Counted from the first letter of the stretch, positions 6,954 through 34,325 are shown. The stretch: DNA of 36,432 bases from Candidatus Woesearchaeota archaeon (GCA_964466575.1 CAYXNP010000008.1:9060-45491), one strand, 5' to 3'. The notes: generated by a model not told the origin, from the letters alone. Numbers and translations: made by a program.

Positions 6954-7026
6954 CGCGAGTTCATAAGTCCCAACCTCCGTCCCCCGACCACCCACCCGGA
7001 CGAAGTGCGGAATAAATGAACTCGCG
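6954..7026. repeat. Stem-loop repeat family copy A: 11-bp perfect stem CGCGAGTTCAT/ATGAACTCGCG enclosing the pyrimidine-rich core CCCAACCTCCGTCCCCCGACCACCCACCCGGA
   Basis: Direct reading; the same architecture with co-varying stems occurs at 7852, 16353 and 34141. Confidence 0.6.
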
Positions 7027-7192
7027 ATTATTTGAATTTGCTAGAATCAAATTGAATTGAGGGAGCGCGGATTCTTCAAAAGAGATGAAGCGCTCCCTTC
7101 GCTGTTTTTGTGGGAAGTGGGGAAAGAATTTAGTTGTAGAAAAAGTTGCTGTGTGCAGCGACGGAAGAAGCTGTTTTGGAAAAGAGGAAGAA

Positions 7193-7525
7193 ATGAAAAA
7201 AAACACTGCTTTAGGTTTTGTTCTTGGCGTAATTGTGGGTATTTTAGTAGATTGTTTTATTACAATGGTGGTTAGTAATGTGAGAGAAGTTGTTTTGTAT
7301 GAAAAAGAGGATTTACCGAATGTGATAAGAGTTCAGGAGTTCGGAGTAGATTCAATCTTTGTTTATGATTTTGGCGAAGTTTCCGTGCCAGACATAGACG
7401 GAGTGACGATGACAAAAACTCTTTTCATTTCACTTTCGGATTGGATGGACAAAATAGAGTCCGAATCTTTACGGGCTCTTAGGACGGTCGAGATAAACAC
7501 ACTCGTTGAGATATACGATAATTAA
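7193..7525 (+). CDS. Membrane-anchored hypothetical protein (110 aa); the ORF-track 5-prime extension (7085) is unlikely
   Basis: ATG 7193 is preceded by an AGAGGAAGAA SD-like stretch; N-terminal TM helix. Confidence 0.4.
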   Translation: MKKNTALGFVLGVIVGILVDCFITMVVSNVREVVLYEKEDLPNVIRVQEFGVDSIFVYDFGEVSVPDIDGVTMTKTLFISLSDWMDKIESESLRALRTVEINTLVEIYDN

Positions 7526-7563
7526 CGTCGAACTATGAGAGCGACGGAAAGGAAGTAAGAGAA

Positions 7564-7743
7564 ATGGAATTAGAGAAAAAAAGAACAGAACTCGAAATGA
7601 GGTTAGCAAAAGATCAAGAGCCCGCCTTGTACTCTCTCGGAAGCTGTCTTGTCATAGTTCTTGGATTGCCAATTTTGTGTTTTCTTGTGAAGGCTTTTGA
7701 GAGGATGTATTATGGGTATGGTTTTTGGCCGTGGAATTGGTAA
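7564..7743 (+). CDS. Small TM protein (59 aa), SD GGAAGGAAG upstream
   Basis: Manual ORF; one hydrophobic helix; below the ORF-track cutoff. Confidence 0.3.
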   Translation: MELEKKRTELEMRLAKDQEPALYSLGSCLVIVLGLPILCFLVKAFERMYYGYGFWPWNW

Positions 7744-7805
7744 TTAAAAATAGCAAGGCTGAATTAATCATCCTTAACAAATCATATTCCGATTTGGCAT
7801 TGCTA

Positions 7806-8104
7806 TTTTTTTTGCAAAATTTCTGAAATGAAAATTTTGTTTATTTCACTCACGATTTCATAATCCCACCACCGTCTCCCCTACCACCCACCCGAGGCGA
7901 TACTGCGTTAATGAAATCGTTCGTTATCTTCTTTCAAACTTATTTTTTTTGCAAAATTTCCGAGATATTGCGCTCACTCTGTTCGCGTTAGTGTTTGTTT
8001 TTAACTAGATTCAAAATTGTTAATGTGATAAAGATAAATCTTAGTTAACATAATTCATCGAGCGAGTGGAACGCTTCAAAATTATATCTTTTTTGCAAAA
8101 TTTC
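7806..8104. promoter_or_regulatory. Three copies of the palindromic motif TTTTTTGCAAAATTTC (about 7806-7823, 7944-7960, 8089-8104) in the intergenic region upstream of the DsbA-like gene; candidate operator or promoter array
   Basis: Exact repeated palindrome TTTTGCAAAA seen three times within 300 bp. Confidence 0.4.
7852..7920. repeat. Stem-loop repeat family copy B: stem ACGATTTCAT/ATGAAATCGT around the core CCCACCACCGTCTCCCCTACCACCCACCCGAG
   Basis: Same architecture as copies A, C and D, with compensatory stem changes. Confidence 0.6.
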
Positions 8105-8178
8105 TTCTAAAACATCTTCATTTCAATCGTATTTGAATTCACCAAAATGTTTTTAAACGACTTTTTCATGGAAATAAA

Positions 8179-9153
8179 ATGGAAGAAGAAAAATATGATT
8201 CTGAAAATACTGGACTAAAACCAGTTCATTCTACTCATGAGAAGTCTGATACTATTTCAATTAAGGTGCCGCCGATTACTAAAAAGATGCGGGAAAATCC
8301 CTGGATGGTTGCTACTATTGTTTTAGCAATTGTTATAATATTTATGGGATTTATGTTTTATAGAGGCGGTGGTTTGACTAGTGGTGTGATTACTGGGAAA
8401 ACAATTTCAGAAGATGATGCTTCAAAGAACCTTGTTGAATTCTTAAATCAAGATGCGCCTGGACAATTTACTGCTGGAGATGTAGAAACAGAATATGGTA
8501 TGTATAAAGTTAATATTAATTTTCAAGGAAGAGAAATTCCAATTTATGTTACTAAAGATGGAAAGCTTGCTGGTTCATTCCAGCCATTGGTTTTAGGTGA
8601 TGGAGCTGGTGGAACTGGAAGTAAAGTTGATGTTTCTGAAGATGATGATGCTGTTGAAGGTTCTCCAGACGCGCCAGTTACAATTATTGAATTTAGTGAT
8701 TACGAATGTCCTTTTTGCGGAAGATATTTTTCTGATACTTATCCCCAGATAAAAAAAGATTATATTGATACTGGAAAGGTCAGACTTGTTTTCAGAGACT
8801 TTCCTTTGAGTTTCCATCCAACTGCAATGCCGGCTGCTCAAGCTGCTGAATGTGTTAGAGAGGTTGCAGGAAAAGATGAAGCATATTTCAAATATCATGA
8901 TAAACTTTTTAGCAATCAAGAAAGTTTGACTAATGAGAATTTGAAGAAGTGGGCTAAGGAAATGGGATATGATATAGGTGCATGTTTTGATTCAGGAAAG
9001 TATGAAGACGAGATTAATGCTGACTTGGCTGATGGACAAGCTGCTGGAGTTTCTGGCACACCAGCGTTTTTTATTAACGGACAGTTAATTGAAGGCGCGC
9101 AGCCTTACACGAATTTCAAGAAAGTTATTGACGAAGAGTTGGCGAAGGCTTGA
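8179..9153 (+). CDS. DsbA-like thiol:disulfide oxidoreductase (thioredoxin fold, CPFC active site) with N-terminal membrane anchor
   Basis: Motif SDYECPFCGRYF; TM helix near the N-terminus; a DsbA-family-like C-terminal region. Confidence 0.7.
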   Translation: MEEEKYDSENTGLKPVHSTHEKSDTISIKVPPITKKMRENPWMVATIVLAIVIIFMGFMFYRGGGLTSGVITGKTISEDDASKNLVEFLNQDAPGQFTAGDVETEYGMYKVNINFQGREIPIYVTKDGKLAGSFQPLVLGDGAGGTGSKVDVSEDDDAVEGSPDAPVTIIEFSDYECPFCGRYFSDTYPQIKKDYIDTGKVRLVFRDFPLSFHPTAMPAAQAAECVREVAGKDEAYFKYHDKLFSNQESLTNENLKKWAKEMGYDIGACFDSGKYEDEINADLADGQAAGVSGTPAFFINGQLIEGAQPYTNFKKVIDEELAKA

Positions 9154-9609
9154 TTGTTATTAATCGCTTGTTAAGTAAACCCTATCTTAATCTGAAAAAC
9201 CCAATAAACCCAAAATTGTGCTCACTTTGTTCGCATATCTTTATAGTTAATATTATCCGACGAAGTCGCAAATTTTATAATTAAATATCTTAGATAATTT
9301 AAATAATATGTTTGTTTGATTCAAGAAATGTTAAGTTAGCAACTTGACTTAACATCACCATAATATTTTTAAATTCTGATGATTAGATTTTTTTATGGAT
9401 AGGAATGTGGATAATGATCGTGAAAGATTAGAGAGAGAATTATTGGTAGAATATGATTCTTTAAACCAAAGAAATCCAAAACATCCTTTACTTGGACTTA
9501 TTTAGGGAAGAGATGATGGATTTGTTTTTACTTCTTTATTTGATAAACATTATTGTGGCGGAACGATTAAAAGAAAATATGAAAAGTATGTTGAAGAATT
9601 AAAGGCAGC

Positions 9610-9882
9610 TTAAAGATTTCTCCAAAATTTATCTAACTTATCACATTCAGTTTCTTTCATTTTTTCAGTGATTAAATAAATAAAAGAATATACTGCTTCT
9701 AATAATTGACCTGGCCGGGAATTTTTTTGCGCATAACTAAGAAGAAGGCTATGCAAGTATGGATTTTTTGCTGCTAAATGCGCGCTAATTTCGCTTGTTA
9801 TTTCTGTTCTTTTTTCTGCGAACTCCTCCATTTTTCTTAAGTAGAATTCTTCGTCTATTTCTGGCAAATCATCAAGCGCCAT
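9610..9882 (-). CDS. Hypothetical small protein (90 aa), overlaps the RFC-L stop by 11 nt (co-transcribed)
   Basis: ORF track; no family recognised. Confidence 0.35.
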   Translation of the reverse strand: MALDDLPEIDEEFYLRKMEEFAEKRTEITSEISAHLAAKNPYLHSLLLSYAQKNSRPGQLLEAVYSFIYLITEKMKETECDKLDKFWRNL

Positions 9883-11095
9883 TTTCCAAATAAGTTATTT
9901 CTTCTTCGCTTAACTTTAATTCTTTTTGCACATCTGGGTTTTGTAGAATTGGTTTGAGAGTGTTGAATTCAGACATTGCGCGTTTTGAACCGATGTGAAC
10001 GTATTTTGCATATTTGACTGCGATGGTCTTTTTTTGGGCGTTTTTTTGATTTGACATCCAGATTTTTAAAATTCGTGTTGGTTTTTTGTACGACGTGAAA
10101 CCTGTGTTAGGAGTTTTTGTTGAAAGTTTTGACGATGAAATTCCGTAGCTTAAGAAAATGTTTTCGTAAATTAAGAAACGCCAGTATTGTTGTTTGTAAA
10201 TTCTTCCTTTGAATAAATCTGCTTTTGATAAATAATCGAACGCAGTGTACAATTCTTTGTTTTTATATTCTGATGGAATATTTTCTTCGAGCCATAATAA
10301 AATTTGGTCGAGGGGCATATTGACCTCGTCGAATATTCTGAGTGTTTCAGGAGTTGGTTTTCCTTTGAAAATTAATTTTAACGCGTTGAAGATATCCTTT
10401 TCTTTGTTTCTTTCATCGAGCATTTCTGAAGTTATATTTTTTGAATCTGTTTTTGATAATGTTTGTATGTCGTTTATTGCTGCTCTTATATCTCCTTTTG
10501 CTTTTATTGAGATGCTTGTTAAGATGTTGTTGTCAATGAACAGGCCTTCTTTTTTGAGAATATTTATTAAAATGTCTTTTGTTACTCTGTATTCAATTTC
10601 TTTTAATTGGACGAGCTCTGATTTTTGCCTTAGTTGGGAGAATTTTTTGTCCCAGATGTTGTTGGCTGTTACGATAACCGGATATGTTGTTGTGGAAATT
10701 AAATCGAGTAGTTCCTGCAAGCCTCCGCGGTCAACTGCTGAAATGCCGTCGACTTCGTCTACTAAAATTATTTTTTGTTTGTTAGAAGAAAATAATGATT
10801 GCTGTTCAATTGCTGGTTTTAAGACTTCGTCGAGTTTTTTTCTGTCTCTAAAATCAGATGCGTTTAATTCGAATATTTCTGAGTTTGTGTCGAGCGCAGC
10901 GACGTGAGCGAGTGTTGTTTTTCCTGTGCCCGGCGGGCCATGTAAAATTAAAACATTTTTTTTGCGGGCTTTTGTTAATGCTGCAAGAAAGAAACTGTTA
11001 ACGAAATTTTTTATTTTTTTTATAGCTTCGTCTTGACCTTTTACTTCTGGGAATGATTTCGGACGGTATTTTTCAACCCATGTTTGTGTTTGCAT
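9872..11095 (-). CDS. rfcL: Replication factor C large subunit (short, 407 aa)
   Basis: N-terminus WVEKYRPKSF, Walker A LILHGPPGTGKTTLAH, Walker B ILVDEVDGI; the AAA+ clamp-loader pattern. Confidence 0.85.
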   Translation of the reverse strand: MQTQTWVEKYRPKSFPEVKGQDEAIKKIKNFVNSFFLAALTKARKKNVLILHGPPGTGKTTLAHVAALDTNSEIFELNASDFRDRKKLDEVLKPAIEQQSLFSSNKQKIILVDEVDGISAVDRGGLQELLDLISTTTYPVIVTANNIWDKKFSQLRQKSELVQLKEIEYRVTKDILINILKKEGLFIDNNILTSISIKAKGDIRAAINDIQTLSKTDSKNITSEMLDERNKEKDIFNALKLIFKGKPTPETLRIFDEVNMPLDQILLWLEENIPSEYKNKELYTAFDYLSKADLFKGRIYKQQYWRFLIYENIFLSYGISSSKLSTKTPNTGFTSYKKPTRILKIWMSNQKNAQKKTIAVKYAKYVHIGSKRAMSEFNTLKPILQNPDVQKELKLSEEEITYLENGA

Positions 11096-11405
11096 TTTTT
11101 GTTAAAGAGGTTTGATTTTATAAAGATTTATTTGATGATTGATTAGTTTTAAAAATAGCTCACTCGCAAGCTCGTGAGTATCATAGCTTCGAACTGGCTT
11201 CTCGCACAGTTCTACGCAGAAGGGAAAGGTTAATCTAAAAAAGTTTTGATGTAGTTATTTTAATTGATATGACTTATAGATATTATTAATATTAAATTCA
11301 AGTTAATATAAATGGGGTTGAATGACGCGAGTTTGCGAATGCTTGATGCCCTCCAATTTGAATCCCTTATTATGTGGAGTCTAGTTCGTGATTTTTTCAG
11401 ACATC

Positions 11406-12365
11406 TTATTTCCCTATCCCAGCGAGGACAAAACTTGCTAAGAGGGATTGCAATTGGATAAATGTGTCTGAGCCTTCTGTGATTCTGAATTCTGTTTCGC
11501 CTGTTTTTTCAATGAGTTTCATTTTCAGCTCCGGCTCGACGGGAAGATTCCAAATTTCTTTTTGAATTGATTTTATGATGTCTTGTCCTGAGACAGATTC
11601 TTTCAACATTATGTCTAGGAGTTTTTCTCTGGCCTCGACGAAGTTTCCTGATAATGCGTAATCTAAAACTATTCTGACGTCTTTTGGTTTTGAGCCTGCA
11701 AGAATTGTTGAAATTAAATTAGCAGTTATTGTCGGAGAAATTACTGCGGTTGACTGCAAAAGGTTTATACTTCTACGACAGTCGCCCTCGCTTCCGTCAT
11801 AGAGTATTTCTATTGCTTCCTCGTCGATGGTTAGGTTTTCATTTTCAGAAATTTTTTGAATTACTTTTTCAATGTCTTTTTTTTCGAGAAGTTTGAATCT
11901 GAAAATTGCGCAACGTGATTGTATTGGGTCAATGATTTTTGATGAGTAGTTGCATGATAAAATGAAGCGGCAGGTTCCAGAGTAGTTTTCCATTGTTCGT
12001 CTTAGTGCTTGCTGGGCTTCTTGAGTTAGCGCGTCTGCTTCGTCGAGGAAGATTACTTTGAATGGCACGTTGCCGAGTGCTTTTGTTCGCGCGAAGTTTT
12101 TTACTTTTTCCCGGACGATTTGGATTCCTCTTTCATCTGAAGCGTTTAGTTCTAGGTAGTTTTCTTTCCATGTGTCTTTGTAAAGTTGTTTGACGACGAC
12201 TAATGCCAATGTGGATTTTCCTGTGCCGGCAGGACCGGCGAACAATAAATGCGGTATGTTGAATGATTGTGTGAATGATTCAACTCTTTTTACAATGTCG
12301 TTTTGTCCGAGGACTTCTTGAAATGTTGAAGGACGGTATTTTTCTGTCCAAATTTCGCTTGTCAT
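11406..12365 (-). CDS. rfcS: Replication factor C small subunit
   Basis: WTEKYRP, Walker A GPAGTGKST, DEAD-like FLDEADAL, and the SRC motif (IQSRCAIFRF). Confidence 0.9.
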   Translation of the reverse strand: MTSEIWTEKYRPSTFQEVLGQNDIVKRVESFTQSFNIPHLLFAGPAGTGKSTLALVVVKQLYKDTWKENYLELNASDERGIQIVREKVKNFARTKALGNVPFKVIFLDEADALTQEAQQALRRTMENYSGTCRFILSCNYSSKIIDPIQSRCAIFRFKLLEKKDIEKVIQKISENENLTIDEEAIEILYDGSEGDCRRSINLLQSTAVISPTITANLISTILAGSKPKDVRIVLDYALSGNFVEAREKLLDIMLKESVSGQDIIKSIQKEIWNLPVEPELKMKLIEKTGETEFRITEGSDTFIQLQSLLASFVLAGIGK

Positions 12366-12423
12366 AAAAAGTTAAAACTGAAAGGACTTTTAAAGATTGT
12401 TGTGAAGAAGAAGCGTTTAAGTT

Positions 12424-12783
12424 TCATTTCACAAACTCGACGTTTTTGAATTCTTCAAATTCTTTGTCTCCTGTTAGAAAGACAAGGTTATTCTTTATTG
12501 CAGTTATATATCCAATACAATCTGCGTAAGATAATTTTCTTTCTTTGTTCTTATAACGAAATATTGCAGATTCTATTGCTATGTTTTCGTTAATTTCTAT
12601 AAGGACAAAATTTAGTTTGTTTAATATCTTTTTAATTTCTTTTTCATGAATTTCTCTTAAAAGAAAATATGTTACTTCAGAAAGATTTAAGGAATTTGTT
12701 AAAAAAGTTTCTTCTTTATACTTTTCATAATTTGGACTGCCTTTTATGATTTCTATTATCGCATAAGAATCAAAGAACTTCAT
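12424..12783 (-). CDS. PIN-domain protein (VapC-like toxin)
   Basis: N-terminal MKFFDSYAIIE with a conserved Asp, a later acidic LTGDKEFEEF; 4-bp overlap with the upstream antitoxin gene. Confidence 0.6.
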   Translation of the reverse strand: MKFFDSYAIIEIIKGSPNYEKYKEETFLTNSLNLSEVTYFLLREIHEKEIKKILNKLNFVLIEINENIAIESAIFRYKNKERKLSYADCIGYITAIKNNLVFLTGDKEFEEFKNVEFVK

Positions 12784-13025
12784 CTTTTAATTCCCCAAAG
12801 CTCCTCGTCAATTTCATTCATTATTTCTTGTGTAGATTTTTCTGGTCTTTTTAATTTTCCTTTGAGGATTCCAAATACATCTTTTACTTTTGTTTTGTTT
12901 TTTGTTTCAACTATTATTTCAATTTCCATTCCGTCTTTAATGTCTTGTTTATCGACAATGCTTTTTGGAAGTATTACGCCGAATGAGTTTCCCCATTTCC
13001 TTACTTTGACATTTGTTTTTTCCAT
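12780..13025 (-). CDS. AbrB/SpoVT/MazE-family antitoxin (VapB-like)
   Basis: Swapped-hairpin signature VKVRKWGNSFGVILPKSIV; translationally coupled to the PIN gene. Confidence 0.65.
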   Translation of the reverse strand: MEKTNVKVRKWGNSFGVILPKSIVDKQDIKDGMEIEIIVETKNKTKVKDVFGILKGKLKRPEKSTQEIMNEIDEELWGIKR

Positions 13026-13322
13026 AAGTTATACATGTATAATTTGTATTTAAGGTTTTCGGAGAAGGACTTTTAAAGATTGTTGTGAAGAAGATTAATC
13101 TAGATTTATTTTTTATCACTATTATTATCATTATTATCAAGTTGAATTCCGTTAGCTATGATTCTTATTCTCGCGAAGAATGCGCGAACAAATTGAATTT
13201 TATTTAGAACGAGCTCGTCTTAATTTACGTTTGCGCTTTTCTTTCCTAAGACGTTTTCGCTGCCATTTCCAGCGCATTTGTCTTTTCTTTTTCCATCGTC
13301 TGCTTGATCGCTTCATAAAAAA

Positions 13323-13976: not shown

Positions 13977-14019
13977 AGGTAACAATTAATTTTATAAATG
14001 GATTATTTGATGTTCTTTT

Positions 14020-14544
14020 ATGGATGAAAGGTATTCATTGAAAGATGTTGCGAGGCTTGCTTTTGAAGATTGGGAAGATTTTGTTGATATGGTGAAAATA
14101 AAAGGAATTCCCATAGATTTTTCTCTTAATTTAGCTGGAAATGATTATAGAAATATTTTTTTAGAAACAGACATTGAAAAACTTAGCAAATTAGTTGTGA
14201 GTGAACTTGTTTTTAATTCAATGAAATCTACTTTGGCGATAAGTGCATTAACAGATATTCTGAGGGAGAATTTTAATAAATCTCGTTTTTTAGAGAGACT
14301 TCCAAAAGTTGAAGTTGGATTGTATTCTAGAGATAGAGAGGATGTTTTGTATGTTGAAGATAATGGAAAGGGAATTTCTCCAGAAATAAGAAGTAAGATT
14401 TGGGAATATGGTTTTTCTACTTTTGGGACTACGGGTATTGGACTTGTGGGAGTTAAAAAGACCGTGAGTGAATATCGTGGAAGAATTGAGGTTGAAAGTG
14501 AAGAAAATGTGAGAACTCGATTTTCTGTTTATTTTCCAAGATGA
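14020..14544 (+). CDS. Standalone GHKL/HATPase_c domain protein (174 aa) with no HisKA or sensor domain
   Basis: N-, G1- and G2-box-like motifs: YVEDNGKGISPEIRSKI and GFSTFGTTGIGL. Confidence 0.55.
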   Translation: MDERYSLKDVARLAFEDWEDFVDMVKIKGIPIDFSLNLAGNDYRNIFLETDIEKLSKLVVSELVFNSMKSTLAISALTDILRENFNKSRFLERLPKVEVGLYSRDREDVLYVEDNGKGISPEIRSKIWEYGFSTFGTTGIGLVGVKKTVSEYRGRIEVESEENVRTRFSVYFPR

Positions 14545-15907: not shown

Positions 15908-15908
15908 T

Positions 15909-16271: not shown

Positions 16272-16352
16272 GAATTTATGAAGAAAGGTTGATTTTTAAG
16301 TTTTTGTTAATTTGGAGCGTGTCTAAAAAATAGTTTTTTCTAATGGTTTATT

Positions 16353-16431
16353 CCGACGCAATTTCATAGTCCCACCATCCACTCCCCTACCACCCGCCCG
16401 AGTAGTTAGTGAATTAATGAAATTCCGTCGG
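16353..16431. repeat. Stem-loop repeat family copy C: stem CCGACGCAATTTCAT/ATGAAATTCCGTCGG enclosing CCCACCATCCACTCCCCTACCACCCGCCCGAG; flanking sequence GTCTAAAAAATAGTTTTTTCTAATG is shared with copy D
   Basis: Direct comparison with 34098-34340. Confidence 0.6.
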
Positions 16432-16593
16432 TAAATAATATTATATTGAATGAATTATTCGACACGCCCGTTAATTTGCTTCGCCTGACGGCTCAGTTAT
16501 TAAAGAGAGTTAATCTAGATTCATTCATTCATAAGTTGAGTTACTTGCTTTTGCTTTGTTTCACCCCCTCAACCAAGCCAGTATTTTTGGTAT

Positions 16594-16639
16594 TCTAAAA
16601 ACTTATAAATGATTAAATTATAGAAATTTAATCATTAAA
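16594..16639 (+). promoter_or_regulatory. tRNA promoter module (TTCTAAAAACTTATAAATGATTAAATTATAGAAATTTAATCATTAAA) with a TATA-like element about -26; duplicated at 16978..17037
   Basis: Exact duplication of about 46 bp immediately upstream of two tRNA-Glu 5-prime modules. Confidence 0.5.
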
Positions 16640-16858
16640 GCCCCTGTAGTATATGGAGGCCAAGTATGTCTATTCGCAACCCCACTCGAAATTCGGGCGA
16701 TTTGAAAGTCTCGCGAAGTTGCTTTACTCGCGACCCCGCTCCACCACCATCGCCCAAAGAACCTAAACGCGAAGTCGTTCGCCCTCTCAGCCGATCTAGC
16801 ATACTTGGATTTATTATTTGCAGAGGAATAAATAATTAAATCATGCAAACATGATTTA
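16640..16858 (+). pseudogene. Degenerate tRNA-Glu-like module 1: intact-looking 5-prime part (GCCCCTGTAGTATATGGAGGCCAAGTATG) followed by about 180 nt of unrelated structured sequence; no T-arm or acceptor 3-prime strand
   Basis: The 5-prime 30 nt is nearly identical to the functional tRNA-Glu at 17038; CCAAGTATG pairs with a downstream CATACTTGG, and there is an anticodon-loop-like CCCTCTCA. Confidence 0.4.
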
Positions 16859-16863
16859 AAGAA

Positions 16864-16977
16864 GCCCCTGTAGTATAGAGGCCAAGTATGCCTATTCGAG
16901 CCCACGACTTGCTATTAGTATCATTAGATTGTTCAAGTCGTAAACTCTCACCCTCTCAACCGAGTTCGGCATACTTA
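16864..16977 (+). pseudogene. Degenerate tRNA-Glu-like module 2: 5-prime part identical to tRNA-Glu through position about 30, then a hairpin unit (CCCACGACTTG...CAAGTCGTAAACTCTCACCCTCTCAACCGAGTTC) and a complementary GGCATACTT; no acceptor 3-prime strand
   Basis: Direct reading; fused fragments of an anticodon loop (CCCTCTCA) and the T-arm start (CCGAGTTC). Confidence 0.4.
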
Positions 16978-17037
16978 ATTCTAAAAACTTATAAATGATT
17001 AAATTATAGAAATTTAATCATTAAAGCCCCTGTAGTA

Positions 17038-17193
17038 TAGAGGCCAAGTATGCCGCCCTCTCATTACCGAAGTTTAGTCGATGAGATGGTAACTTCAGTC
17101 CCCTTAGGACAGGTATCCTTGTTATATCCTCTGATTTTTTCAAGGATATTTCAGAGAACGGCGGTGACCCGAGTTCAAATCTCGGCGGGGGCA
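17038..17193 (+). tRNA. tRNA-Glu(CUC) with an 83-nt intron at the canonical 37/38 position (exon 1 17038..17075, exon 2 17159..17193 including discriminator A; CCA not encoded)
   Basis: Manual fold: acceptor GCCCCTG/CGGGGGC, D-arm GTAT/GTAT, anticodon stem CCGCC/GGCGG, loop CUCUCA with anticodon CUC, T-arm CCGAG-TTCAAAT-CTCGG. Intron ends were inferred from stem complementarity; the BHB was not verified. Confidence 0.7.
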
Positions 17194-17246
17194 TTAGAAC
17201 TAATAGGGCGAAATATTTATAAAGTAGGGCTTTATTATATTTCTTA

Positions 17247-27200: not shown

Positions 27201-29341
27201 TTGTAGGCGCGAAAGAATACGCATATTTTACAAATAATAAAGAGGAGTATGGGGTTAAAACTCACGGAGTAGGTTTTAGAGCTAGCGGTTATAAAAGTGT
27301 TCTTGATAAATTATTTAGAAGTTTGATTAATGGAGTTGATAAAGATACAGCAATTAAAGAGGCGGTTGGTGTTGCGCCTATGTTAAGAGGTTTTAATTTT
27401 TCACACGTATATGGTAGAACTAGCACGCTATACACGGGATTAGCAGATATTATTAATAAAAAGAAAGAAAGTTTAGGCGAGTATAAAATAGATGATAGTG
27501 TGTTTAAATGTTATCAATATGGAAAAACGGGTTTGTTTATTTCTGATTGTGAGAATATAACAAAAGGCACGTTCGGGTTAATGTTTAGATTGAGTGAGCC
27601 GAAGATTTATTTTTTTAGTGTTAAGTATGGTTTTAATGATAAGATGTTAAAAGAAGTTTTAGAAAATATTGAGGGTATATCTGAAAACGATAGAAAGATT
27701 ATTTTAGAAAGATTAGATAGTAAGTATAGCGAGATTTTATTTTTAGATAAATATTTAGGGAAAAACGAAGATAATGTTAAACGTAGAATTTTAGAGGGTG
27801 TTGTTGGTGAGGGTAATGTTTGCGTGCCTTTTGATTGTGAAGTGAAAGAAGATATTAATATAAGTTTTAATGAGAAAAAGTTAGAGCTTGATGGTGTTGA
27901 ATACTGCGGTATGGTTGAATTACCTAAATTTGATTTTGCTAGTAAAATGCAAGCGGATTTAACAACATTTTACAGCAAGGCGATAACTTCTATAAGCAAG
28001 AGTTTAAGCTATTGGTTTGTTAAAAGGCAAAATCCCGATAATGCAGAAGAGGTTTTTAATAAAAGAAATAGCGAGTTGTTGATACCACAGAAGAAAAACG
28101 AGATATTAGTGCCGTTAAATATGGTTGAAGTGCCTGAAAGTGAGGCACAGATTAAGCTAGCCCTAGAAGAGAGAGAAAAGAAGAAAGTTTTAGATAAATA
28201 TTTTATGAAAACAGAAACGGGCGGTTATTATGGATTAAAAAAGAAAGTTGATTTTAGTGAGATTAAAGATGAACTTTTAACAATATTAAAACCTAGAAAC
28301 ACAATAATAACAGAAGAGTTTAATAAAAAGAAATATTGGTTTGAGGTTACTAGCTATAAAGCAAATAACTTTAATGCAGTTTTAAGGATTAATGTAGTTG
28401 TTGGAAATCCGCCAATACTAAAATATTATTTATGGATTAATCCAAGACATTTTAACTCTTTTTTTAATGTTGATTTGTGGAACGCGAGCTATACGGATTT
28501 AATGTTTAGTAGTGAGGGGTTAAGTAATGTTGTGAATAAGGTGTTTGAAATTGCTTATAATAATTCAGAACATTCGCACGGAGTTGTTTATAATTCTATT
28601 TTAAGCGGGTTTAGTAGAGGCGCGAGTTATAGCTTAAATGATTTGAAAAAGAATAATAAATATTTTTTAGATATTTGTTATAGCGTTGCGTGTTCGTTTA
28701 TTGTTATGAATAGTGTTAAGCATAGCAGTTTAAAGATAGGGCGTTTAGATTTGAGTAAAAATATTAATATGAATGTTGGAAAGGATAGGCAAGATTTAGT
28801 TATATCTTTTTTACAAACGCAAATGAATAAAGAAGTTGGTGATTTTTTAGATTTTAAGAGTAATAATAATTTTGTTGATAGGGTTAGATTGAGTGAAAAA
28901 ATTTATACGGCTAGTAGCGGGCATTATAGCGGGCTTGTGAATAAACGAACAAAAATAAGCCAAGTAATTTATAACAAGAGCCAACAGCTAGATTATAAAT
29001 TATTAAAGAGTTGTAGAAAGAAAAGTTTTAATTCTAGACAAATAACTAAATTTTATGAACAGAAATTAGAGATAGAGCGAAAAAATAAAGATACTAATGT
29101 GTGGCGTTTAGAAGTTCAAGCATACGGATATAAAGCAATTCAGAAAGCCGTTAATAGCTATGATAAGATTATGAAGAAAATGGAAAATTTGCTTTTGATT
29201 GTGATTAGATTAATTAATAAGATTGATATGAGTGATTTTGTTTTATTAACACAATTAGGTGAAGAGAGTAAAGCGTTTAGTTTTTGGTTTAATGATATTG
29301 TGAAAGAGAGATATAAACCGCCGTTGCTTTTGGTTACGTGA
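24230..29341 (+). CDS. polB: Giant family B DNA polymerase (1703 aa) with an intact 3-prime-5-prime exonuclease, an about 290-aa N-terminal extension and an about 700-aa C-terminal extension of unknown function
   Basis: Ordered motifs: Exo I YYDIETDY, Exo II IAHNSNFDI, Exo III YLIKDLFVTD, Pol A DFASLYPH, Pol B KIILNAGYG, Pol C YYSDTDS, KxY GAKEYAY. Confidence 0.85.
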   Translation: MINLELEDFENNKRIVNSFCLENKSNKNSSAGVTSVMGRSKNTRSSFLFDTIELNRQEQLLEVARNLKKGERGVCLTYIASKLKKNDENKKFFEKVVKTIKDKREFDISEELKKGYNVFEKGYSKKLVDKTEHGREIVKALYGYERELIIKRGINEVWDDYKARVSLIEDKEKRERKFKECEEAKAFLEARGFLEFIPDARNGIQIYHSLRLMENSGGLKITREDYNVLDLGFKEDMIKGTLAESGLNELNEELKEVNELVKKELESKNMVVEFKPEIPKPAKNDYGDFGLMNKGNKKFTKIYYDIETDYKQEACLIGVYNKDLKRIVLAQIVKEIRLKEGEQKINPRFEKSYKDGFEIIKCEVVNGYEAVFLADCESYLACVCNSLMRQGDKTPSILKEMIKGVDINFNYFSEIYNNKRRSLWIAHNSNFDINKLNLTARNGLKHIDSSGVKVEDIIINTFGNKKRYLGYLFNPDKNLNEREKWGVSYKLGNRNIGVYFKASTQKYGLWEKPEIELKPIQKESDNYVYALDSVLVARALQKKSASLKNLGDEYDLEVKKAESEYNFKGGELWSSAEKDIKEVEYLIKDLFVTDYVFRELTKELDVIENLLGLVKIDKDRIKKHASEMPYLYRVYSTASLSKLFYQIKYSEDYDDWKVKHGNSKFYENINELFKEVYSGGRVEIFRHGIIKDKKIVYSDFASLYPHTSYLTNVEPLMNDILNKKLKFTSDIEEIEYSFWVMIHKLAKKIKNKEPLVKEDFCDSAVLNVKINNINLRLSRKANIFRGKVKTDANKRNRCDLIINKGSVVNVSCYDLCYSVLEQHLINNINLEDLQKDIIFNKGLMVVPSYRTSKNEDMHTLLYERRGSIKNEIKGIEKIKENEEKIKHLKSQSEFIKIILNAGYGITAEFNNDRAGQFYNPILASSITGMARLMNNITEISTRFYGFDVYYSDTDSCLMDSGGYDIVSNLFKDVCELKNELSENVFVNNMLIVGAKEYAYFTNNKEEYGVKTHGVGFRASGYKSVLDKLFRSLINGVDKDTAIKEAVGVAPMLRGFNFSHVYGRTSTLYTGLADIINKKKESLGEYKIDDSVFKCYQYGKTGLFISDCENITKGTFGLMFRLSEPKIYFFSVKYGFNDKMLKEVLENIEGISENDRKIILERLDSKYSEILFLDKYLGKNEDNVKRRILEGVVGEGNVCVPFDCEVKEDINISFNEKKLELDGVEYCGMVELPKFDFASKMQADLTTFYSKAITSISKSLSYWFVKRQNPDNAEEVFNKRNSELLIPQKKNEILVPLNMVEVPESEAQIKLALEEREKKKVLDKYFMKTETGGYYGLKKKVDFSEIKDELLTILKPRNTIITEEFNKKKYWFEVTSYKANNFNAVLRINVVVGNPPILKYYLWINPRHFNSFFNVDLWNASYTDLMFSSEGLSNVVNKVFEIAYNNSEHSHGVVYNSILSGFSRGASYSLNDLKKNNKYFLDICYSVACSFIVMNSVKHSSLKIGRLDLSKNINMNVGKDRQDLVISFLQTQMNKEVGDFLDFKSNNNFVDRVRLSEKIYTASSGHYSGLVNKRTKISQVIYNKSQQLDYKLLKSCRKKSFNSRQITKFYEQKLEIERKNKDTNVWRLEVQAYGYKAIQKAVNSYDKIMKKMENLLLIVIRLINKIDMSDFVLLTQLGEESKAFSFWFNDIVKERYKPPLLLVT

Positions 29342-29393
29342 GATTTTTTATTTTTATTATTAATAATTTTGGTTAGCTTTTGCTTTAATTTCT

Positions 29394-29476
29394 CTATTAA
29401 GTGAATGTATTACTACATATTACTACATTCACTTACTTTTGTGTTTTGAAGTGAATGTATTACTACATTCACTTAC
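29394..29476. repeat. Two tandem copies of the palindrome AAGTGAATGTA-TTAC-TACATTCACTT, each followed by ACTTTTGTG and a T-rich tract; terminator- or origin-like hairpins downstream of polB
   Basis: A perfect 11-bp inverted repeat in copy B (29447-29472); copy A carries a 10-nt internal duplication. Confidence 0.55.
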
Positions 29477-29949
29477 TTTTGTGGTATTTTTTAAGTAGGA
29501 TATTTACACGAACGAATATGTCGCCTTTATTATTACTATAAGTTAAGCTATTCTCCGAACGATTAGAGTTTGAAATAAGGTTATGATTGTTGTGTTGATG
29601 AATATATTAGTTTTTTTATTATTCTTTTAGTATTTTTCAGTGTTTTACAGCATATAACCGCCATCACGCGCGTATTAAATTAACTTATAAGGTGAGAATT
29701 TTTAGGTATTATTCTATTGAAAGGGGTTGTTGTGGCTAGAATGAAGATGAAAGGATATAAGTAAAGAATTTCAGCAAGGGATTAGCAATAGGTTTTAATA
29801 TTGTTTCTCTAACATTAATCTTGTGTGATGTCCCATAATTACTTTACACTTTAGATTTATCTAAGGTGGTATTTTATAGATAATAATTGGGAACCAAAAG
29901 TATTTTAATAATTGAATATATAGAAATTCATAATAGGAGGACTATTAAA

Positions 29950-30072
29950 ATGAATGACAATGAATTTATCGACGACATTTTAGGACATCACCGAATAGGA
30001 AACAAAGCCATTACTGAAATGGAATTAAGTAAAGAGATTAATGAACTCTTTGATGTGAATAGAGAAATGTGA
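29950..30072 (+). CDS. Small hypothetical protein (40 aa from ATG 29950, SD AGGAGG)
   Basis: A strong SD, AATAGGAGGACT, is 8 nt upstream. Confidence 0.3.
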   Translation: MNDNEFIDDILGHHRIGNKAITEMELSKEINELFDVNREM

Positions 30073-30400
30073 ATTTTATTTTTTCTTTTTTATTAATGAA
30101 GTTGCGATTAGGAAGCAGTTAAAGATTTTCTATTTGCAAGAAGGGAAAGAGAATTAAAATGGTTTGGAATAAAGTTATAAAACCAGATTTAAAAAATGAG
30201 CAAGAAAAGGTAGCTTTATGCGTTTAAACGCTATTCTAGGGAAAGGATAAAGAAAGATATTTATAGTAGCGGTGTGTTATAAAAATACAAAGGTTTATTT
30301 TTCACGTCGGAATTTTGAAACAAAAACAATACTTCTTATTTAATTACTACTATTTTATACATAACCAATATACTTAAAAGTGTATAGGGTTAAGTGTCTT

Positions 30401-30503
30401 TTCGGCGGGGGCGTTCCTCAATTTGAACAGTTCAAATCTCTGCTCGCGAGCTCACTCACATCAAGCGATTTGGTAAGTTCGTGAACGTCGCTCGGCGGGG
30501 GCG
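30401..30503 (+). mobile_element. Right-end attachment-site remnants: two copies of the tRNA-Glu 3-prime terminus (TTCGGCGGGGGCG at 30401-30413; CTCGGCGGGGGCG at 30491-30503) with a decayed T-loop copy (CAGTTCAAATCTCTG) between them
   Basis: Identical to the T-stem 3-prime strand plus acceptor 3-prime strand of the tRNA at 17181-17192; direct repeats bracket the element 17194-30503. Confidence 0.6.
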
Positions 30504-30517
30504 TATATTTTAAAAAC

Positions 30518-31486
30518 TTGTTTTTCTTTTCTTGTTTTATGGAAAAGAGGTTGAAGAAGTTTGTTAAATCAGTATGGAATTTGCGTTGGTATACAAAAAC
30601 TCTTCTCATTATTTTAATTTTATTTGTCATTTGGTTTTTGATTTTAACTTTTAAAACAGGATTGATTTTTAAAGGCGAGATTGATAAAAGGGATTTTGGT
30701 TATTGGAATTATGAAAATGGAATTATTGCTGGTGCAGAAGAATTTGAATTACCAGGGAATAAAGAAACTTGTTGGTTATTGATCCATAGTTATTCTTCGA
30801 CGCCGATGGAGATGAAAGAAGTTTCTGAAAGAATTAATAATGAATTTGGAGATTATGTTTTTGTTCCGCGTTTGAAAGGGCATGGTGAAGTTCCAAGTCA
30901 AATAAAAGATTTATCTTTAGATGATTGGTATGAACAAGTTGAAGAAGATTTTGATTTGTTGAAAAGTGGGTGTGAAAATGTTAATGTTGTTGGAAGTAGT
31001 TTTGGAGGGGCATTGACTTTAAGATTGGCTGAACAAAAAGATTTGAAAAATGTTTATCTTGCGAATGCTTATTTGACGACGACAAATCGTTGGTATTATG
31101 GGTTCCCTGTTGATTTTTATTTAGATTATTTTTCAGATTATTTGATTTATACAGAGAAAGTAGAAATTGGACAGATTAATGATCCTGAAGGATTGAAGAT
31201 GCATGTTGCATATAGGAATTTTCCAATACAGCCTGTTAAAAATTCTTTTGGATTTTTGGAAACAACAAAAAATGAATCTTGGAAAGTTGAAGAGCCTGTT
31301 TTAATTTTACATTCGCCAAACGATGTTACTGCTGATTTTGATACGATGAAAAAAATTTTTGAAGATGTTTCTAGTGAAGTAAAGGGGTTTAAGGAATTTC
31401 CAAAATCTAATCATATTTTGTTTTTAGATTATGATAATGAAGAAGTAATAAAAAGTATTTTAGATTTTGAAAAGGAGAACAGATGA
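30518..31486 (+). CDS. Alpha/beta-hydrolase fold protein (esterase/lipase-like) with an N-terminal TM
   Basis: Nucleophile elbow GSSFGG (VVGSSFGGALTL); TM helix LLIILILFVIWFLILTF. Confidence 0.6.
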   Translation: MFFFSCFMEKRLKKFVKSVWNLRWYTKTLLIILILFVIWFLILTFKTGLIFKGEIDKRDFGYWNYENGIIAGAEEFELPGNKETCWLLIHSYSSTPMEMKEVSERINNEFGDYVFVPRLKGHGEVPSQIKDLSLDDWYEQVEEDFDLLKSGCENVNVVGSSFGGALTLRLAEQKDLKNVYLANAYLTTTNRWYYGFPVDFYLDYFSDYLIYTEKVEIGQINDPEGLKMHVAYRNFPIQPVKNSFGFLETTKNESWKVEEPVLILHSPNDVTADFDTMKKIFEDVSSEVKGFKEFPKSNHILFLDYDNEEVIKSILDFEKENR

Positions 31487-32961
31487 AGAAAATAGTTAAA
31501 AAAAATGGGAAGTTAAGTAAAAAGAAGATTGTAATTTATATTTTGTTGGCGATTTTTTGTTTTTATGGAATTATGTTTTTGTACCATTCTTCGAAGCCAT
31601 TGCCTGACGGAGTTAGTTTTGAAGGAGAAATTTACGAAGTTGATGCGAACAATGTTGAATTTATTTATGATATAACTTATAGAGATGAGTATGATAATGA
31701 AATTATTGAGCAGAAAATTTTTGATAAAGTGTTAGAGACAATTGATAATGCTGAGGAATTTATTCTTCTTGATTTTTTCTTGTGGGATGCTGGCGAGGAT
31801 GTTCATAGGGATTTATCTACGGAGTTAGTTAATCATTTAATTGAAAAGAAAAAAGAAAATCCCGAGATAAAGATTAATTTTATGACAGACAGTTATAATA
31901 CTTTTTATGGTTCGAAAAGACATGAAGGTTTTGATAAATTAGAAGAGAATGGGATTGAAGTTGGTTTTACTGATTTAGATAAATTGCGAGATAGTAATCC
32001 TATTTATTCGGCGGCTTGGAGGATTTTTTTTAAGCCATTTGGAGTTCCTGAAAAATGTGAAAAGAGTTTGATTAAATTAGGAGGTGAGAAACGATGCATT
32101 CGGTCTGCGTTGAAAGCTTTGAATTTTAAAGCAAATCATAGAAAAGTTCTTGTTGCTGATAATTATATTAATGGTTCTAAAAAAGTTGTTTCGATTGTGA
32201 CTTCTGCGAATCCAAGTTCGCATGGAAGCAAATATTCTAATGTGGCGTTGTATATTGAAGACGAGATTTGGAAAGATATTTATTATTCTGAAAAAGCTGT
32301 TGCTGATTTTTCTAAGGAAAATTTTGTCGAGCACGATTTTGATATAGATAATGTTAATATTGAAGATTCGGCAACTGTTCAGTTTTTGACAGAGGGTAAA
32401 ATAAAAAAGAATTTTGTCGACGAGATTGATAAAACTGTTGGGGGCGAGAGTATTGATATTGCGCAGTTTTTGTTGACAGAGAGGGAGGTTATAGATTCTT
32501 TGATTAAGGCGTCTAAGAGAGGAGTTGAAGTAAGATTAGTTTTGGATCCGAGTTATTATTTATTTGGAAAAGATTCTAAGGGAATTCCTAATCGTTTGGC
32601 AGCGAGGGATTTAGTTAATGAAGGTAAGGGGGATATTAATGTCAGATGGTATGATACTCATGGCGAGGAATTTCACAGCAAGATTATGGTTATTAAAAAG
32701 AAAAATGGCAGGACAATTGTTTTTTTAGGGAGCGCAAATCTTACGCGAAGAAATATTGATGATTATAATTTGGAAGCTGATGTGAAGTTAGTTGCGCAGA
32801 ACGATTCGAAGGTTGTTCAAGATATTTATGCTTTTTTTGAAAGAATTTATAATAATGAAAATGGGCATTATACTTTGGATTATGAAGAAAAGAAAGATAA
32901 TTCTAAATGGAAATATTTTAAGTATAGATTTCAAGAAGCAACGGGAATTTCTGTTTGGTGA
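31483..32961 (+). CDS. Phospholipase D-like (two HKD motifs) membrane-anchored protein; cardiolipin-synthase or PLD-nuclease superfamily
   Basis: HKD-1 NHRKVLVADN...GSKKVVSIVTSANPS; HKD-2 FHSKIMVIKK...FLGSANLTRRN; an N-terminal TM. Confidence 0.65.
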   Translation: MKKIVKKNGKLSKKKIVIYILLAIFCFYGIMFLYHSSKPLPDGVSFEGEIYEVDANNVEFIYDITYRDEYDNEIIEQKIFDKVLETIDNAEEFILLDFFLWDAGEDVHRDLSTELVNHLIEKKKENPEIKINFMTDSYNTFYGSKRHEGFDKLEENGIEVGFTDLDKLRDSNPIYSAAWRIFFKPFGVPEKCEKSLIKLGGEKRCIRSALKALNFKANHRKVLVADNYINGSKKVVSIVTSANPSSHGSKYSNVALYIEDEIWKDIYYSEKAVADFSKENFVEHDFDIDNVNIEDSATVQFLTEGKIKKNFVDEIDKTVGGESIDIAQFLLTEREVIDSLIKASKRGVEVRLVLDPSYYLFGKDSKGIPNRLAARDLVNEGKGDINVRWYDTHGEEFHSKIMVIKKKNGRTIVFLGSANLTRRNIDDYNLEADVKLVAQNDSKVVQDIYAFFERIYNNENGHYTLDYEEKKDNSKWKYFKYRFQEATGISVW

Positions 32962-32966
32962 AATAT

Positions 32967-33458
32967 TTATATAAAAAGATTAAGATATTTTTTCATGTTT
33001 GGTAAAAATTCATTAGGATTTTTATTTAGTTCTTTTAATAATTCTTCTTTTGAAAACCATTTCACTTCCTCAACTTCTTCCCTTTGAATTTTAAAATCAT
33101 CAGTGTTTTTATCAAGAATCAATATGAACCATTGAGTGAAATAGTTGTATTCATTTTGGGTTCTTGTTTTTGGTCCTAGTTTAGGTTTAATATTTTTTAT
33201 GCCTAATTCTTCTTCTGCTTCTTTAATAATGTTTAATTTATATGTTTCCCCTTTTTCAACTGTTCCTGCAACAGCGGGTCCCCATTTTCTTGGATGATGC
33301 AATTTATTGCGATGGCGTTTTGCTAACAATATATCTTCCTTTGAATTGATTAACCATAATGCTGAAACTCTGTATATATCTTTTTTCTTTAGAGAATTTC
33401 TTTTTTTAAATCCAATGAGATTATCTTTTTCGTCAACAATAATTATTTCTGATACCAT
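32967..33458 (-). CDS. Nudix hydrolase
   Basis: Nudix box GTVEKGETYKLNIIKEAEEELGI (Gx5Ex7[RK]EAxEELG). Confidence 0.7.
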   Translation of the reverse strand: MVSEIIIVDEKDNLIGFKKRNSLKKKDIYRVSALWLINSKEDILLAKRHRNKLHHPRKWGPAVAGTVEKGETYKLNIIKEAEEELGIKNIKPKLGPKTRTQNEYNYFTQWFILILDKNTDDFKIQREEVEEVKWFSKEELLKELNKNPNEFLPNMKKYLNLFI

Positions 33459-33534
33459 ATTATAATTTGATAATAATAGTTGATAAATTTGGATTAATTA
33501 GTTTATTATTCGCGAACGTAAGTGGGTGCTATTT

Positions 33535-33786
33535 TTATTTAACCAATAAAACAGCGTCGTTAGGGCGGACTTTGTCTGGAACTTTTATTCCGATGTGGTT
33601 GCCTTTCTTTGCTGATTTAACTGATTTATGTTCAATTTGGATTTCTTTGACATTTGTTTCAAAGTCAGTTGTTGAACCTTTAATATGGATTTTATCTCCG
33701 ACATTTAAAGCACCTGAAAGTTTTATTGCAGCCACTTTTACATGACTGAAATAACTTGAAACTCTGCCAATTTCTTTTTCTGTCAT
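33535..33786 (-). CDS. Small beta-barrel protein (83 aa), possibly an EF-Tu domain-2-like fold
   Basis: ORF track; a beta-rich pattern (VKVAAIKLSGALNVGDKIHIKG); family uncertain. Confidence 0.3.
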   Translation of the reverse strand: MTEKEIGRVSSYFSHVKVAAIKLSGALNVGDKIHIKGSTTDFETNVKEIQIEHKSVKSAKKGNHIGIKVPDKVRPNDAVLLVK

Positions 33787-34140
33787 AGTTTATTGAAGAA
33801 GAAGGGATATTTAAATTTTGCTAATAGGAAATAATGGCGAAATTGCTCTGCTCGCAACCCTGCTCAGTAATTTATTATTTAATTTCTCCTTCGCAAAATT
33901 GCTCACTCATAACCCCGCTCGGTTATTATTTAATAAATTTGTCCTTCACAAATTTGCTTGCTTACACGTTCGCGAGGATAAATTAAAAGCCATAAATTGA
34001 ATTTGATTCAACATTGATAATAATATTGATAAATCTGGGTTAATATAATTTTTGGGCTTTGGATTGGGGTTATTATATCACGAGCTTGCGAGTGCTAATT
34101 CAGAGCGTGTCTAAAAAATAGTTTTTTCTAATGACTTATT

Positions 34141-34325
34141 CCGACGCAATTTCATAGTCCAAATTCACGCCCACGTTTTGTTATTAATAAGAATTTACAT
34201 CAAAACGTAAACGCTCACCATCCACTCCCCTAACTCGAGCCCACGATTTGTTATTATTTTCTAATTTGTCAAATCGTAAACTCTCGCCACCCCCGAGTAG
34301 TTAGTGAATTAATGAAATGCGTCGG
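34141..34325. repeat. Stem-loop repeat family copy D (expanded): the same closing stem as copy C, but the loop carries two inserted hairpin modules (CCCACGTTTTG...CAAAACGTAAACGCTC and CCCACGATTTG...CAAATCGTAAACTCTC)
   Basis: Alignment by eye with 16345-16440; the modules are bounded by CGAG/CCGAG. Confidence 0.55.

Follow-up and report, generated by a model that had tools for sequence, protein, structure and literature searches.

We analyzed a window of 36,432 nucleotides (nt) from a contig catalogued as Candidatus Woesearchaeota archaeon (GCA_964466575.1, CAYXNP010000008.1:9060-45491), which encodes the small and large subunits of RFC, a DsbA-like protein, an SPFH protein, and a tyrosine integrase at a GC content of ~30% across most of its length. 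The noncoding regions of this window contain two families of short structured repeats, a hairpin present in four copies and a shorter module that is nested inside other repeats. With somewhat better than even confidence, we interpret them as two nested, lineage-specific families of nonautonomous, hairpin-forming mobile repeats of Pacearchaeota (DPANN), comprising a miniature inverted-repeat transposable element (MITE) and hairpins resembling repetitive extragenic palindromic (REP) sequences, which would be selfish and dependent on their structure.

Related contigs and repeat models

Contigs with the window proteins were drawn from ENA, JGI, and Logan assemblies (L numbers below), several of them labeled groundwater metagenome under PRJNA268031, which we take to be the Rifle aquifer project. 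The closest named homologues of the large RFC subunit (64 to 71% identical) belong to metagenome-assembled genomes of "Candidatus Pacearchaeota" or "Nanoarchaeota." Both repeat families are present in the Pacearchaeota contig L151, whose large RFC subunit is 71% identical to that of the window; the NCBI record name of this protein has the sample tag CG10_big_fil_rev, presumably indicating Crystal Geyser, a site other than the window's.

A hairpin covariance model (R1) was built on an alignment of 11 distinct hairpins (A3) and a module model (R2) on alignment A6, with 26 distinct modules entering the covariation count. The hairpin model identified at least 14 distinct loci in ~164 kb, and the module model at least 20 distinct copies in 176 kb, plus copies in L150 and L151. 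Beyond the four window copies, related contigs add no fewer than 13 hairpin loci. A further hairpin in L151 (10670-10737) scored 41 bits, while a second stem-closed hairpin with a G-quadruplex (G4) motif, located 5' of the DsbA orthologue, scored 14.6 bits (E, 0.21) and is counted by architecture rather than as a model match. A metagenome scan with a specific pattern returned 10 hairpin loci, all on JGI metagenome contigs; a 17-nt C-rich pattern scan of genome contigs returned chance matches alone, in high-GC bacteria, and viral contigs gave no match to the hairpin core or to the MITE end. DPANN genomes are tiny and gene dense, and about one structured repeat per 5 to 10 kb is carried here.

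Hairpin copies in the window

A reading made from the window alone (the sequence-only reading) had described four intergenic stem-loops with a shared C-rich core, and all four were found where it placed them (Table 1). The core CCCCKACCACCCRCCCG has three matches in the window versus 0.00 expected. The closing stems could be confirmed as quoted there: copies 1 and 2 close with 11 and 10 bp, respectively, copy 3 with 15 bp including one mismatch, and copy 4 with 14 bp and a deletion of 1 nt. All four copies out-fold shuffled sequence on both strands (z, -3.7 to -7.4). Their grouping as one family is supported as well, with the fold conserved and not the stem sequence. Copy 1 has an additional outer stem in which GCAAGTTCAA (6944-6953) pairs with TTGAATTTGC (7032-7041), and it is absent between the same two genes in the sister-species contig L132 (~84% nucleotide identity). 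In L151, the DsbA orthologue has a stem-closed G4-motif hairpin on its upstream side too, one that differs from copy 2. Copy 4 is equivalent to copy 3 with two insertions of ~55 nt and gives a weak, split match to the hairpin model.

Copies 1 and 2 belong to a solo class, together with hairpins in L130, L132, L135, L137, L133b, L134b, L138b, L005b, and L131b, that has the hairpin alone in common; at the loci examined, these hairpins have unrelated flanks, no target-site duplication (TSD), and no terminal inverted repeat (TIR).

Two further repeats lie near the solo copies. A 26-mer, TATTTTTTTTGCAAAATTTC(T/C)GA, occurs three times in direct orientation (7804-7829, 7941-7966, and 8085-8110, spaced 137 and 144 nt apart); hairpin copy 2 lies between the first and second of these, and the third stands before the DsbA-like gene. 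Downstream of copy 1, a hairpin, GAGGGAGCGCGG...GAAGCGCTCCCT, at 7061-7105 is conserved in L132 and overlaps the ATG at 7085, and the neighboring gene therefore probably starts at 7193 instead.

Stem covariation and the folding strand

The compensatory stem changes noticed among the window copies hold in the larger samples of hairpins and modules. Across the 11 distinct hairpins, 94% of cells in the alignment are paired and 14 of 28 pairs have changed on both sides, whereas none of 500 shuffles was as good and slid registers were only 37 to 50% paired. The closing stems vary around GC(R)A(N)TTCAT, each with a matching partner, and compensation is evident in GATTTC/GAAATC versus GAGTTC/GAACTC, GCGA/TCGC versus GCAA/TTGC, and TTCAT/ATGAA versus TTCGT/ACGAA. 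Judging from these alignments, we regard the paired changes as genuine and the hairpin fold as under constraint.

In the outer stem, nearly all cells (122 of 125) are Watson-Crick pairs, and neither strand pairs better than the other, but the inner half of the hairpin forms a helix on the G-rich strand only, which is the minus strand of the window. There the inner stem is 90% paired with 36 G·U cells, compared to 67% paired with three G·U cells on the C-rich strand. Because of these G·U pairs, the G-rich strand appears to be the folding strand. The modules, whose stems had likewise been credited with compensatory changes, are paired in 94.6% of cells, with both sides altered in 12 of 15 pairs, across 26 distinct sequences, in an alignment that was fitted to the model and so leans toward structure. 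Their UUU/GGG positions alternate among UG, UA, and CG, and their predicted folds reach -19 to -23 kcal/mol on the minus strand versus -7 to -14 kcal/mol on the plus strand, ~10 kcal/mol better on minus. Together, these repeats provide a natural data set of covarying hairpins in which the folding strand can be read from G·U pairs.

A G-rich loop with a quadruplex motif

On the G-rich strand, the hairpin is capped by a 15-nt loop, GGGYGGGUGGUAGGG, in which all 11 G positions are invariant among 11 copies and all 4 non-G positions vary. The approximately six changes observed in the loop all fall on those four positions (calculated p, ~4e-4 if changes were random over the 15 positions). G-quadruplex-aware folding predicted a two-tetrad quadruplex in the loop of 11/11 copies, with the predicted minimum free energy reduced by 7 to 15 kcal/mol. 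Of 23 listed matches to a G4 motif (G3+, four times) in 178 kb of AT-rich sequence, overlapping contigs included, 20 lie within these hairpins, always antisense to the neighboring genes. The two L151 hairpins have loops that differ in sequence (GGGAGGGAGGGGGGG; GGGUGGGACUCAAUUUGGGUGGG) but the same stem-plus-G4 design and the same orientation. The pattern of loop conservation is thus that of a G-quadruplex, with the quadruplex itself being a prediction of the folding model.

Copies 3 and 4 lie within a 155-bp MITE

Hairpin copies 3 and 4 are each the center of a larger unit with 12-bp TIRs (GAGCGTGTCTAA / TTAGACACGCTC), which are perfect in L133, L134, L136, and L139 and have 1 or 2 mismatches at the right ends of the window copies. 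TSDs of 9 bp flank the unit at five unrelated sites, namely window copies 3 and 4, L131, L133/134, and L136 (GTTAATTTG; GCTAATTCA/GTTAATTCA; AATTTTCCT/AATTGTCCT; CGTAGCAAC/CGCAGCAAC; CAAACAACA). Contig L006 has a precise empty site (...gtttttGTTAATTTGcttcgcc...) with a single GTTAATTTG and without the copy-3 unit, between flanks that are 100% and 99.8% identical to the window. Given the TIRs, the TSDs, and this empty site, the unit is an active or recently active MITE.

The TSDs that the sequence-only reading had proposed to look for at the copy ends were therefore found for copies 3 and 4 and not for copies 1 and 2. That reading favored selection on structure over simple transposon inverted repeats, a contrast that is not supported: the fold is conserved and the stems covary, but copies 3 and 4 do sit within a MITE, to which the covarying stem is internal and distinct from the TIR. 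A classic MITE made of exact identical units, which it had set against its own interpretation, matches in part, with copies 3 and 4 in a TIR/TSD unit, but fails as the whole explanation because the copies are not identical units. The left arm of the MITE carries a TATA-like CTAAAAATAG 29 nt before the hairpin base.

These repeats also break or misjoin metagenome assemblies. Contig L001 stops within copy 3, and in L005, which resembles a join across the repeat, the left flank of window copy 3 continues at 5880-6070 into the right flank of the L131 MITE. Either two MITE copies truly recombined there, or the junction is a chimera created in assembly at the 155-bp repeat. We did not use L005 as an "empty site" for the integrase element, given that its right flank equals that of the L131 MITE.

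The embedded module family

The three modules of the sequence-only reading are real (3 matches versus ~0.3 expected), although the positions it gave were slightly off (corrected in Table 1). On the G-rich strand, the module is 53 to 56 nt long with the consensus CGAG(C)G-UUU, an 8-bp variable stem-loop ending in UAAUAAC, stem, GGG-C(G)CGAG, and then T, with tandem G·A at its base. Its hosts are hairpin copy 4 (twice), a 5' pseudofragment of tRNA-Glu, a hairpin at 2792-2914 of L131, and a repeated RNA-like unit. The L131 hairpin carries a different module subtype at the same hairpin-loop position (A^CCACCC) as the second insertion in copy 4. At the module loci examined, there is no TSD, no TIR, and no conserved flank. 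The modules are a hairpin family separate from the hairpin copies that nests inside other repeats, and nesting reaches three deep, with a module in a hairpin in a MITE. A comparison of L150 with the window to date a module insertion was not possible, as the intergenic region is not alignable.

The repeated unit that hosts a diverged module occurs in the window (35430-35570) and in L131 (3880-4060), L142 (8090-8360), L150 (3280-3530), and L136 (879-1125). Besides a TATA-like TTTTTTATG, it has a leader (CTTGCTTCGCAAAGATTAATGGCT) and a tail (CTAAGAAATTGTTAA) that are both conserved, and different module subtypes occupy the same internal position. The unit resembles either a family of small-RNA genes or a third family of repeats. 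At 33850-33960, two diverged module-like units in tandem (CTCGCAACCCTGCTCAG... and CTCATAACCCCGCTCGG...) are related to the module at 35482-35537; of these, the module model matches only 33922-33943, and very weakly.

Table 1. Coordinates of hairpin copies, modules, and MITE features in the window
Feature	Position	Strand	Details
Hairpin copy 1 (solo)	6954-7026	-	71.4 bits (hairpin model); closing stem CGCGAGTTCAT/ATGAACTCGCG
Hairpin copy 2 (solo)	7852-7920	-	85.6 bits (hairpin model); 259 nt upstream of DsbA-like gene
MITE with hairpin copy 3 (16353-16431)	16315-16469	-	155 bp; TIR left GAGCGTGTCTAA, right GGGCGTGTCGAA (reverse complement)
Left 9-bp TSD GTTAATTTG of copy-3 MITE	16306-16314	.	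Right copy at 16470-16478
MITE with hairpin copy 4 (34141-34325)	34103-34363	-	Enlarged by two module insertions
TSD of copy-4 MITE	34094-34102 and 34364-34372		GCTAATTCA and GTTAATTCA
Module insertion 1 in copy 4	34161-34216	-	~55 nt, between GTCC and CACCATCC; 72.7 bits
Module insertion 2 in copy 4	34233-34286	-	54 nt, in hairpin loop at CCCCTA^CCACCC; 76.3 bits
Module in degenerate 5' tRNA-Glu fragment (unit X2, 16864-16975)	16895-16950	-	70.7 bits
Diverged module in repeated small-RNA-like unit (35430-35570)	35482-35537	-	18.9 bits, weak

Placement and orientation among genes

In all nine tandem-gene contexts (9/9), the C-rich strand of the hairpin is sense to both neighbors. The remaining copies that have a neighbor on either side are located in divergent regions, whose geometry makes them uninformative, and none is in a convergent region. 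Hairpins usually end 50 to 110 nt before the next start codon, just upstream of the TATA-like box of that gene. The C-rich strand is also on the strand of positive GC skew at 15 of 16 loci, and the gene-orientation and GC-skew biases are confounded, making transcription and replication inseparable in these data. Modules show a weaker bias, with 16 of 20 on the low-skew strand and 6 antisense versus 4 sense. A scan for sigma-70 promoters and intrinsic terminators was uninformative for an archaeon.

Explanations for the two families

Mobility of these repeats follows from their multicopy and nonsyntenic distribution, the TIRs and TSDs, the empty site, and the nesting. The first family is a ~70-nt hairpin with a 10- to 15-bp closing stem, a 3x3 internal loop, a G·U-rich inner stem, and a 15-nt G-rich loop, which occurs both solo and as the center of the 155-bp MITE. 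The MITE, given its 12-bp TIRs and 9-bp duplications, would move by cut-and-paste via a DDE-type transposase supplied in trans, and the second family, the ~54-nt module, inserts into other repeats and noncoding loci. The compensatory changes suggest that an element must fold as one strand, the G-rich one, in order to be propagated or tolerated, and the orientation bias may reflect purging of insertions that place the G-rich structure on the sense strand or in mRNA.

A candidate enzyme for the hairpins and modules lies nearby. The left end of an IS200-like insertion sequence (IS), complete at 9880-10560 of L140, falls within approximately the last 45 nt of the window (~36390-36432), and its Y1_Tnp gene is located ~100 nt beyond the window end (157 aa; Pfam E, 7.7e-25). 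The Y1 protein is found on 33 contigs and is named IS200/IS605 by NCBI. The ends of the element form upstream hairpins (CCCCATCTT..AAGATGGGG and GTGGGCT..AGCCCAC) and a branched downstream structure (CCCCAC..GTGGGG). Mobilization of the hairpins or modules by this Y1 (HUH) transposase is possible but not supported. We treated the 7-mer GTGGGCT, common to the IS200 ends and the modules, as a chance match.

Several observations weigh against a selfish, structure-dependent family. The IS200 end hairpins gave no match to the hairpin or the module model, and at the loci examined the solo hairpins and modules have no TSD, conserved flank, or GTAG-type guide; no 5' GTAG-type tetranucleotide stands beside the solo hairpins, and GTAG occurs only inside the loop, where it is variable. 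In the IS608 paradigm for IS200/IS605 elements, the active strand is expected on the lagging-strand template, which by GC skew is here the C-rich strand and not the better-folding G-rich one. The G·U asymmetry of the inner stem is itself carried largely by three conserved U·G positions. An autonomous partner IS with the MITE TIR was not found in a nonexhaustive search, in which TIR pairs lay only 155 bp apart in the contigs examined, and the sole DDE IS seen, in L142, was rejected as a partner since its TIR differs. Moreover, the strict gene-relative orientation, the persistence across species, and the presence of a hairpin 5' of DsbA in two species would fit a host function equally well.

Such a REP-like host function, resting on a quadruplex-capped hairpin, is the main live alternative to selfish repeats. 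It holds that a stem-clamped G-quadruplex hairpin, spread by the MITE, acts on the template strand between genes as a cis-element comparable to bacterial REP sequences or bacterial interspersed mosaic elements (BIMEs), for example as a roadblock to transcription or replication, an insulator, or a protein-binding site, with selection keeping the fold, the G-tracts, and the orientation. The 9/9 orientations with no convergent copy, the position 50 to 110 nt upstream of start codons and before the TATA-like box, and the invariant G-tracts among varying loop spacers all speak for this, as do the L151 hairpins, which keep the stem-plus-G4 architecture and orientation with different loops and one of which stands upstream of the DsbA orthologue like copy 2. 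However, the sister species lacks copy 1, the population is polymorphic for copy 3, and copy 4, whose loop an insertion has broken, persists in all contigs seen. The coincidence at DsbA is weak at about one copy per 9 kb, and quadruplex formation is predicted only. We therefore hold this explanation tentatively, as possible though not probable. The broader proposal, that the hairpin is either a host-function quadruplex element dispersed by the MITE and kept 5' of genes by Pacearchaeota as a strand-specific roadblock or site of protein binding (an archaeal counterpart of REP/BIME) or the substrate of an undescribed HUH-type mobilization in DPANN, strikes us as similarly possible but a shade more doubtful.

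It is unlikely that the hairpin is the mature product of a small RNA (sRNA) gene family with the MITE as its promoter-carrying vehicle. Stem covariation and the GC-rich islands formed in a 30% GC genome speak for sRNA genes, and CTAAAAATAG stands 29 nt before the hairpin base much as TATA-like boxes stand ~30 nt before neighboring start codons. The MITE promoter would, however, transcribe the C-rich strand, whose inner stem pairs worse (67% versus 90%), and solo copies have neither a consistently placed TATA-like box nor a T-tract. There is no Rfam match, the copies are not syntenic (copy 1 versus L132), and five copies in ~46 kb are unlike a housekeeping sRNA. C/D box, H/ACA, K-turn, ribozyme, retron, and coding interpretations found no support by eye or in Rfam. 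Still less probable is that palindromes are maintained without selection, by arm-to-arm template switching or hairpin repair that keeps the stems complementary. The outer stem, with 122 of 125 cells Watson-Crick and equal on both strands, speaks for such a process, but the inner stem and the modules keep conserved G·U pairs and mismatches and have not been homogenized, the loop G positions are clearly constrained, and the family architecture persists across species despite differing sequences.

The sequence-only reading had also suggested that the repeats are tRNA-derived elements, mobile bulge-helix-bulge (BHB) introns, or attachment site (att) fragments of an integrated element. Modules do sit at defined positions within the RNA-like loci that they interrupt, a tRNA-Glu-like fragment among them, and copies 3 and 4 bracket an integrase-bearing segment beside tRNA-Glu and tRNA-Gln. 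We nevertheless consider this origin highly improbable. Only the 7-mer CCCGAGT is shared with tRNA-Glu, with ~0.8 such matches estimated by chance for sequences as long as these; copy 1 lacks it, and no Rfam tRNA or other family matches the copies at E<=1, a threshold at which the window yields only a tRNA at 34409-34540 and a tRNA-like match at 2299-2353. Neither module strand contains a BHB motif, in which 3-nt bulges on opposite strands flank a helix of 4 bp: on the plus strand CCC faces AAA in a 3x3 internal loop, and the minus strand forms a continuous 17-bp stem with tandem G·A. The module folding strand is antisense to the tRNA-like fragment, and homology to the tRNA-Gln intron was rejected, with only CACGTTT in common. 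Finally, L006 keeps the integrase element and the tRNA-Glu region without copy 3, which rules out copies 3 and 4 as the att sites of that element.

A fold that serves mobilization would point to a hairpin-dependent route of transposition in archaea. Were it instead to serve the host, the repeat would be a REP-like regulatory element in a lineage for which hardly any regulation is known.

Other features of the window

The tRNA-Glu region (16592-17194) is a tandem array in which two partial copies, each consisting of the promoter and 5' part and starting at 16640 and 16864, are each followed by inserted repeats and a stem pairing with the D-arm strand (AAGTATGCC/GGCATACTT). The intact tRNA-Glu(CUC) at 17026-17194 has an intron of ~97 nt that was missed by ARAGORN and Rfam; the integrase operon lies directly downstream. 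The tRNA at 34409-34540 has anticodon CUG (Gln) and a 62-nt intron and scored 47.4 bits with Rfam, with no prediction by ARAGORN.

At the left end, window positions 1-3200 form a stretch of ~3 kb at 39 to 44% GC that has tiny open reading frames (ORFs) only and is 80 to 89% conserved with the sister contig L132. It contains internal repeats (285-339 / 906-960) and the 55-nt tRNA-like match at 2299-2353, which is without an anticodon arm, and may be a cluster of unannotated RNA genes. At the right end, the segment at 34551-36432, starting GGCTTTATTGAAAATC, has at least three different left neighbors across contigs: tRNA-Gln in the window, an RsmB-type methyltransferase on L142/144/146/149, and a further gene on L147. 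This block of small ORFs, which ends at IS200, is mobile or prone to recombination.

The sequence also closes on itself. From the right end of the window, L140 runs on via IS200 into 1.7 kb that recurs with 100% identity at the far end of L130; the opposite end of L130 equals window positions 4062-1, implying a circle of ~46.1 kb; independent assemblies gave contigs of 45,395 and 45,491 nt. This closure reflects either a circular replicon with the RFC genes or a segment that has an IS200 copy at each end.

Comparison with known systems

Our literature search on MITEs, hairpin repeats, or BHB introns in DPANN found nothing specific. Like prokaryotic MITEs (Sulfolobus SM elements and bacterial Correia/ERIC-type elements), the 155-bp unit is small, intergenic, and multicopy, has no ORF, carries 12-bp TIRs and a 9-bp TSD, and shows insertion polymorphism with a precise empty site. 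Unlike in those elements, what is conserved and covaries is not the TIR but a hairpin carried inside the unit; this hairpin also occurs solo with other closing stems and no TIR/TSD, and no partner transposase was found in the contigs examined.

The palindrome-associated transposable elements (PATEs) of haloarchaea are derived from IS200/IS605. Solo hairpins and modules share with them an archaeal host, a nonautonomous and hairpin-bearing nature, and the absence of a TSD, but have no sequence similarity to the resident IS200 ends, no conserved target tetranucleotide, and a single hairpin instead of left-end and right-end hairpins. As in integron attC sites, structure is kept while sequence varies, and one strand folds, with unpaired features marking the strand. 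The closing stems nevertheless contain no R''/R' core sites (RYYYAAC/GTTRRRY) and no AAC...GTT cores, the copies are scattered and not in a cassette array, the loop sequence is the conserved part, and the window's tyrosine recombinase belongs to the integrated element beside tRNA-Glu.

To our knowledge, systems based on REP-associated tyrosine transposases (RAYTs, or TnpA-REP) have been described from bacteria only. The repeats resemble bacterial REP/REPIN-RAYT systems in being short intergenic hairpins with compensatory stem changes, strand-specific folding, a strong orientation bias, and a Y1/HUH gene nearby (PMC3116915, PMC8266576). They differ in having no conserved 5' GTAG guide and no inverted doublets, and the Y1 gene here, unlike a RAYT, belongs to an ordinary IS200 present in multiple copies (33 contigs), with none of these hairpins at its flanks. 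The pattern of conservation is also reversed: in REPINs the stem is conserved and the spacer varies (PMC3116915, PMC8266576), whereas here the loop is conserved and the stem varies.

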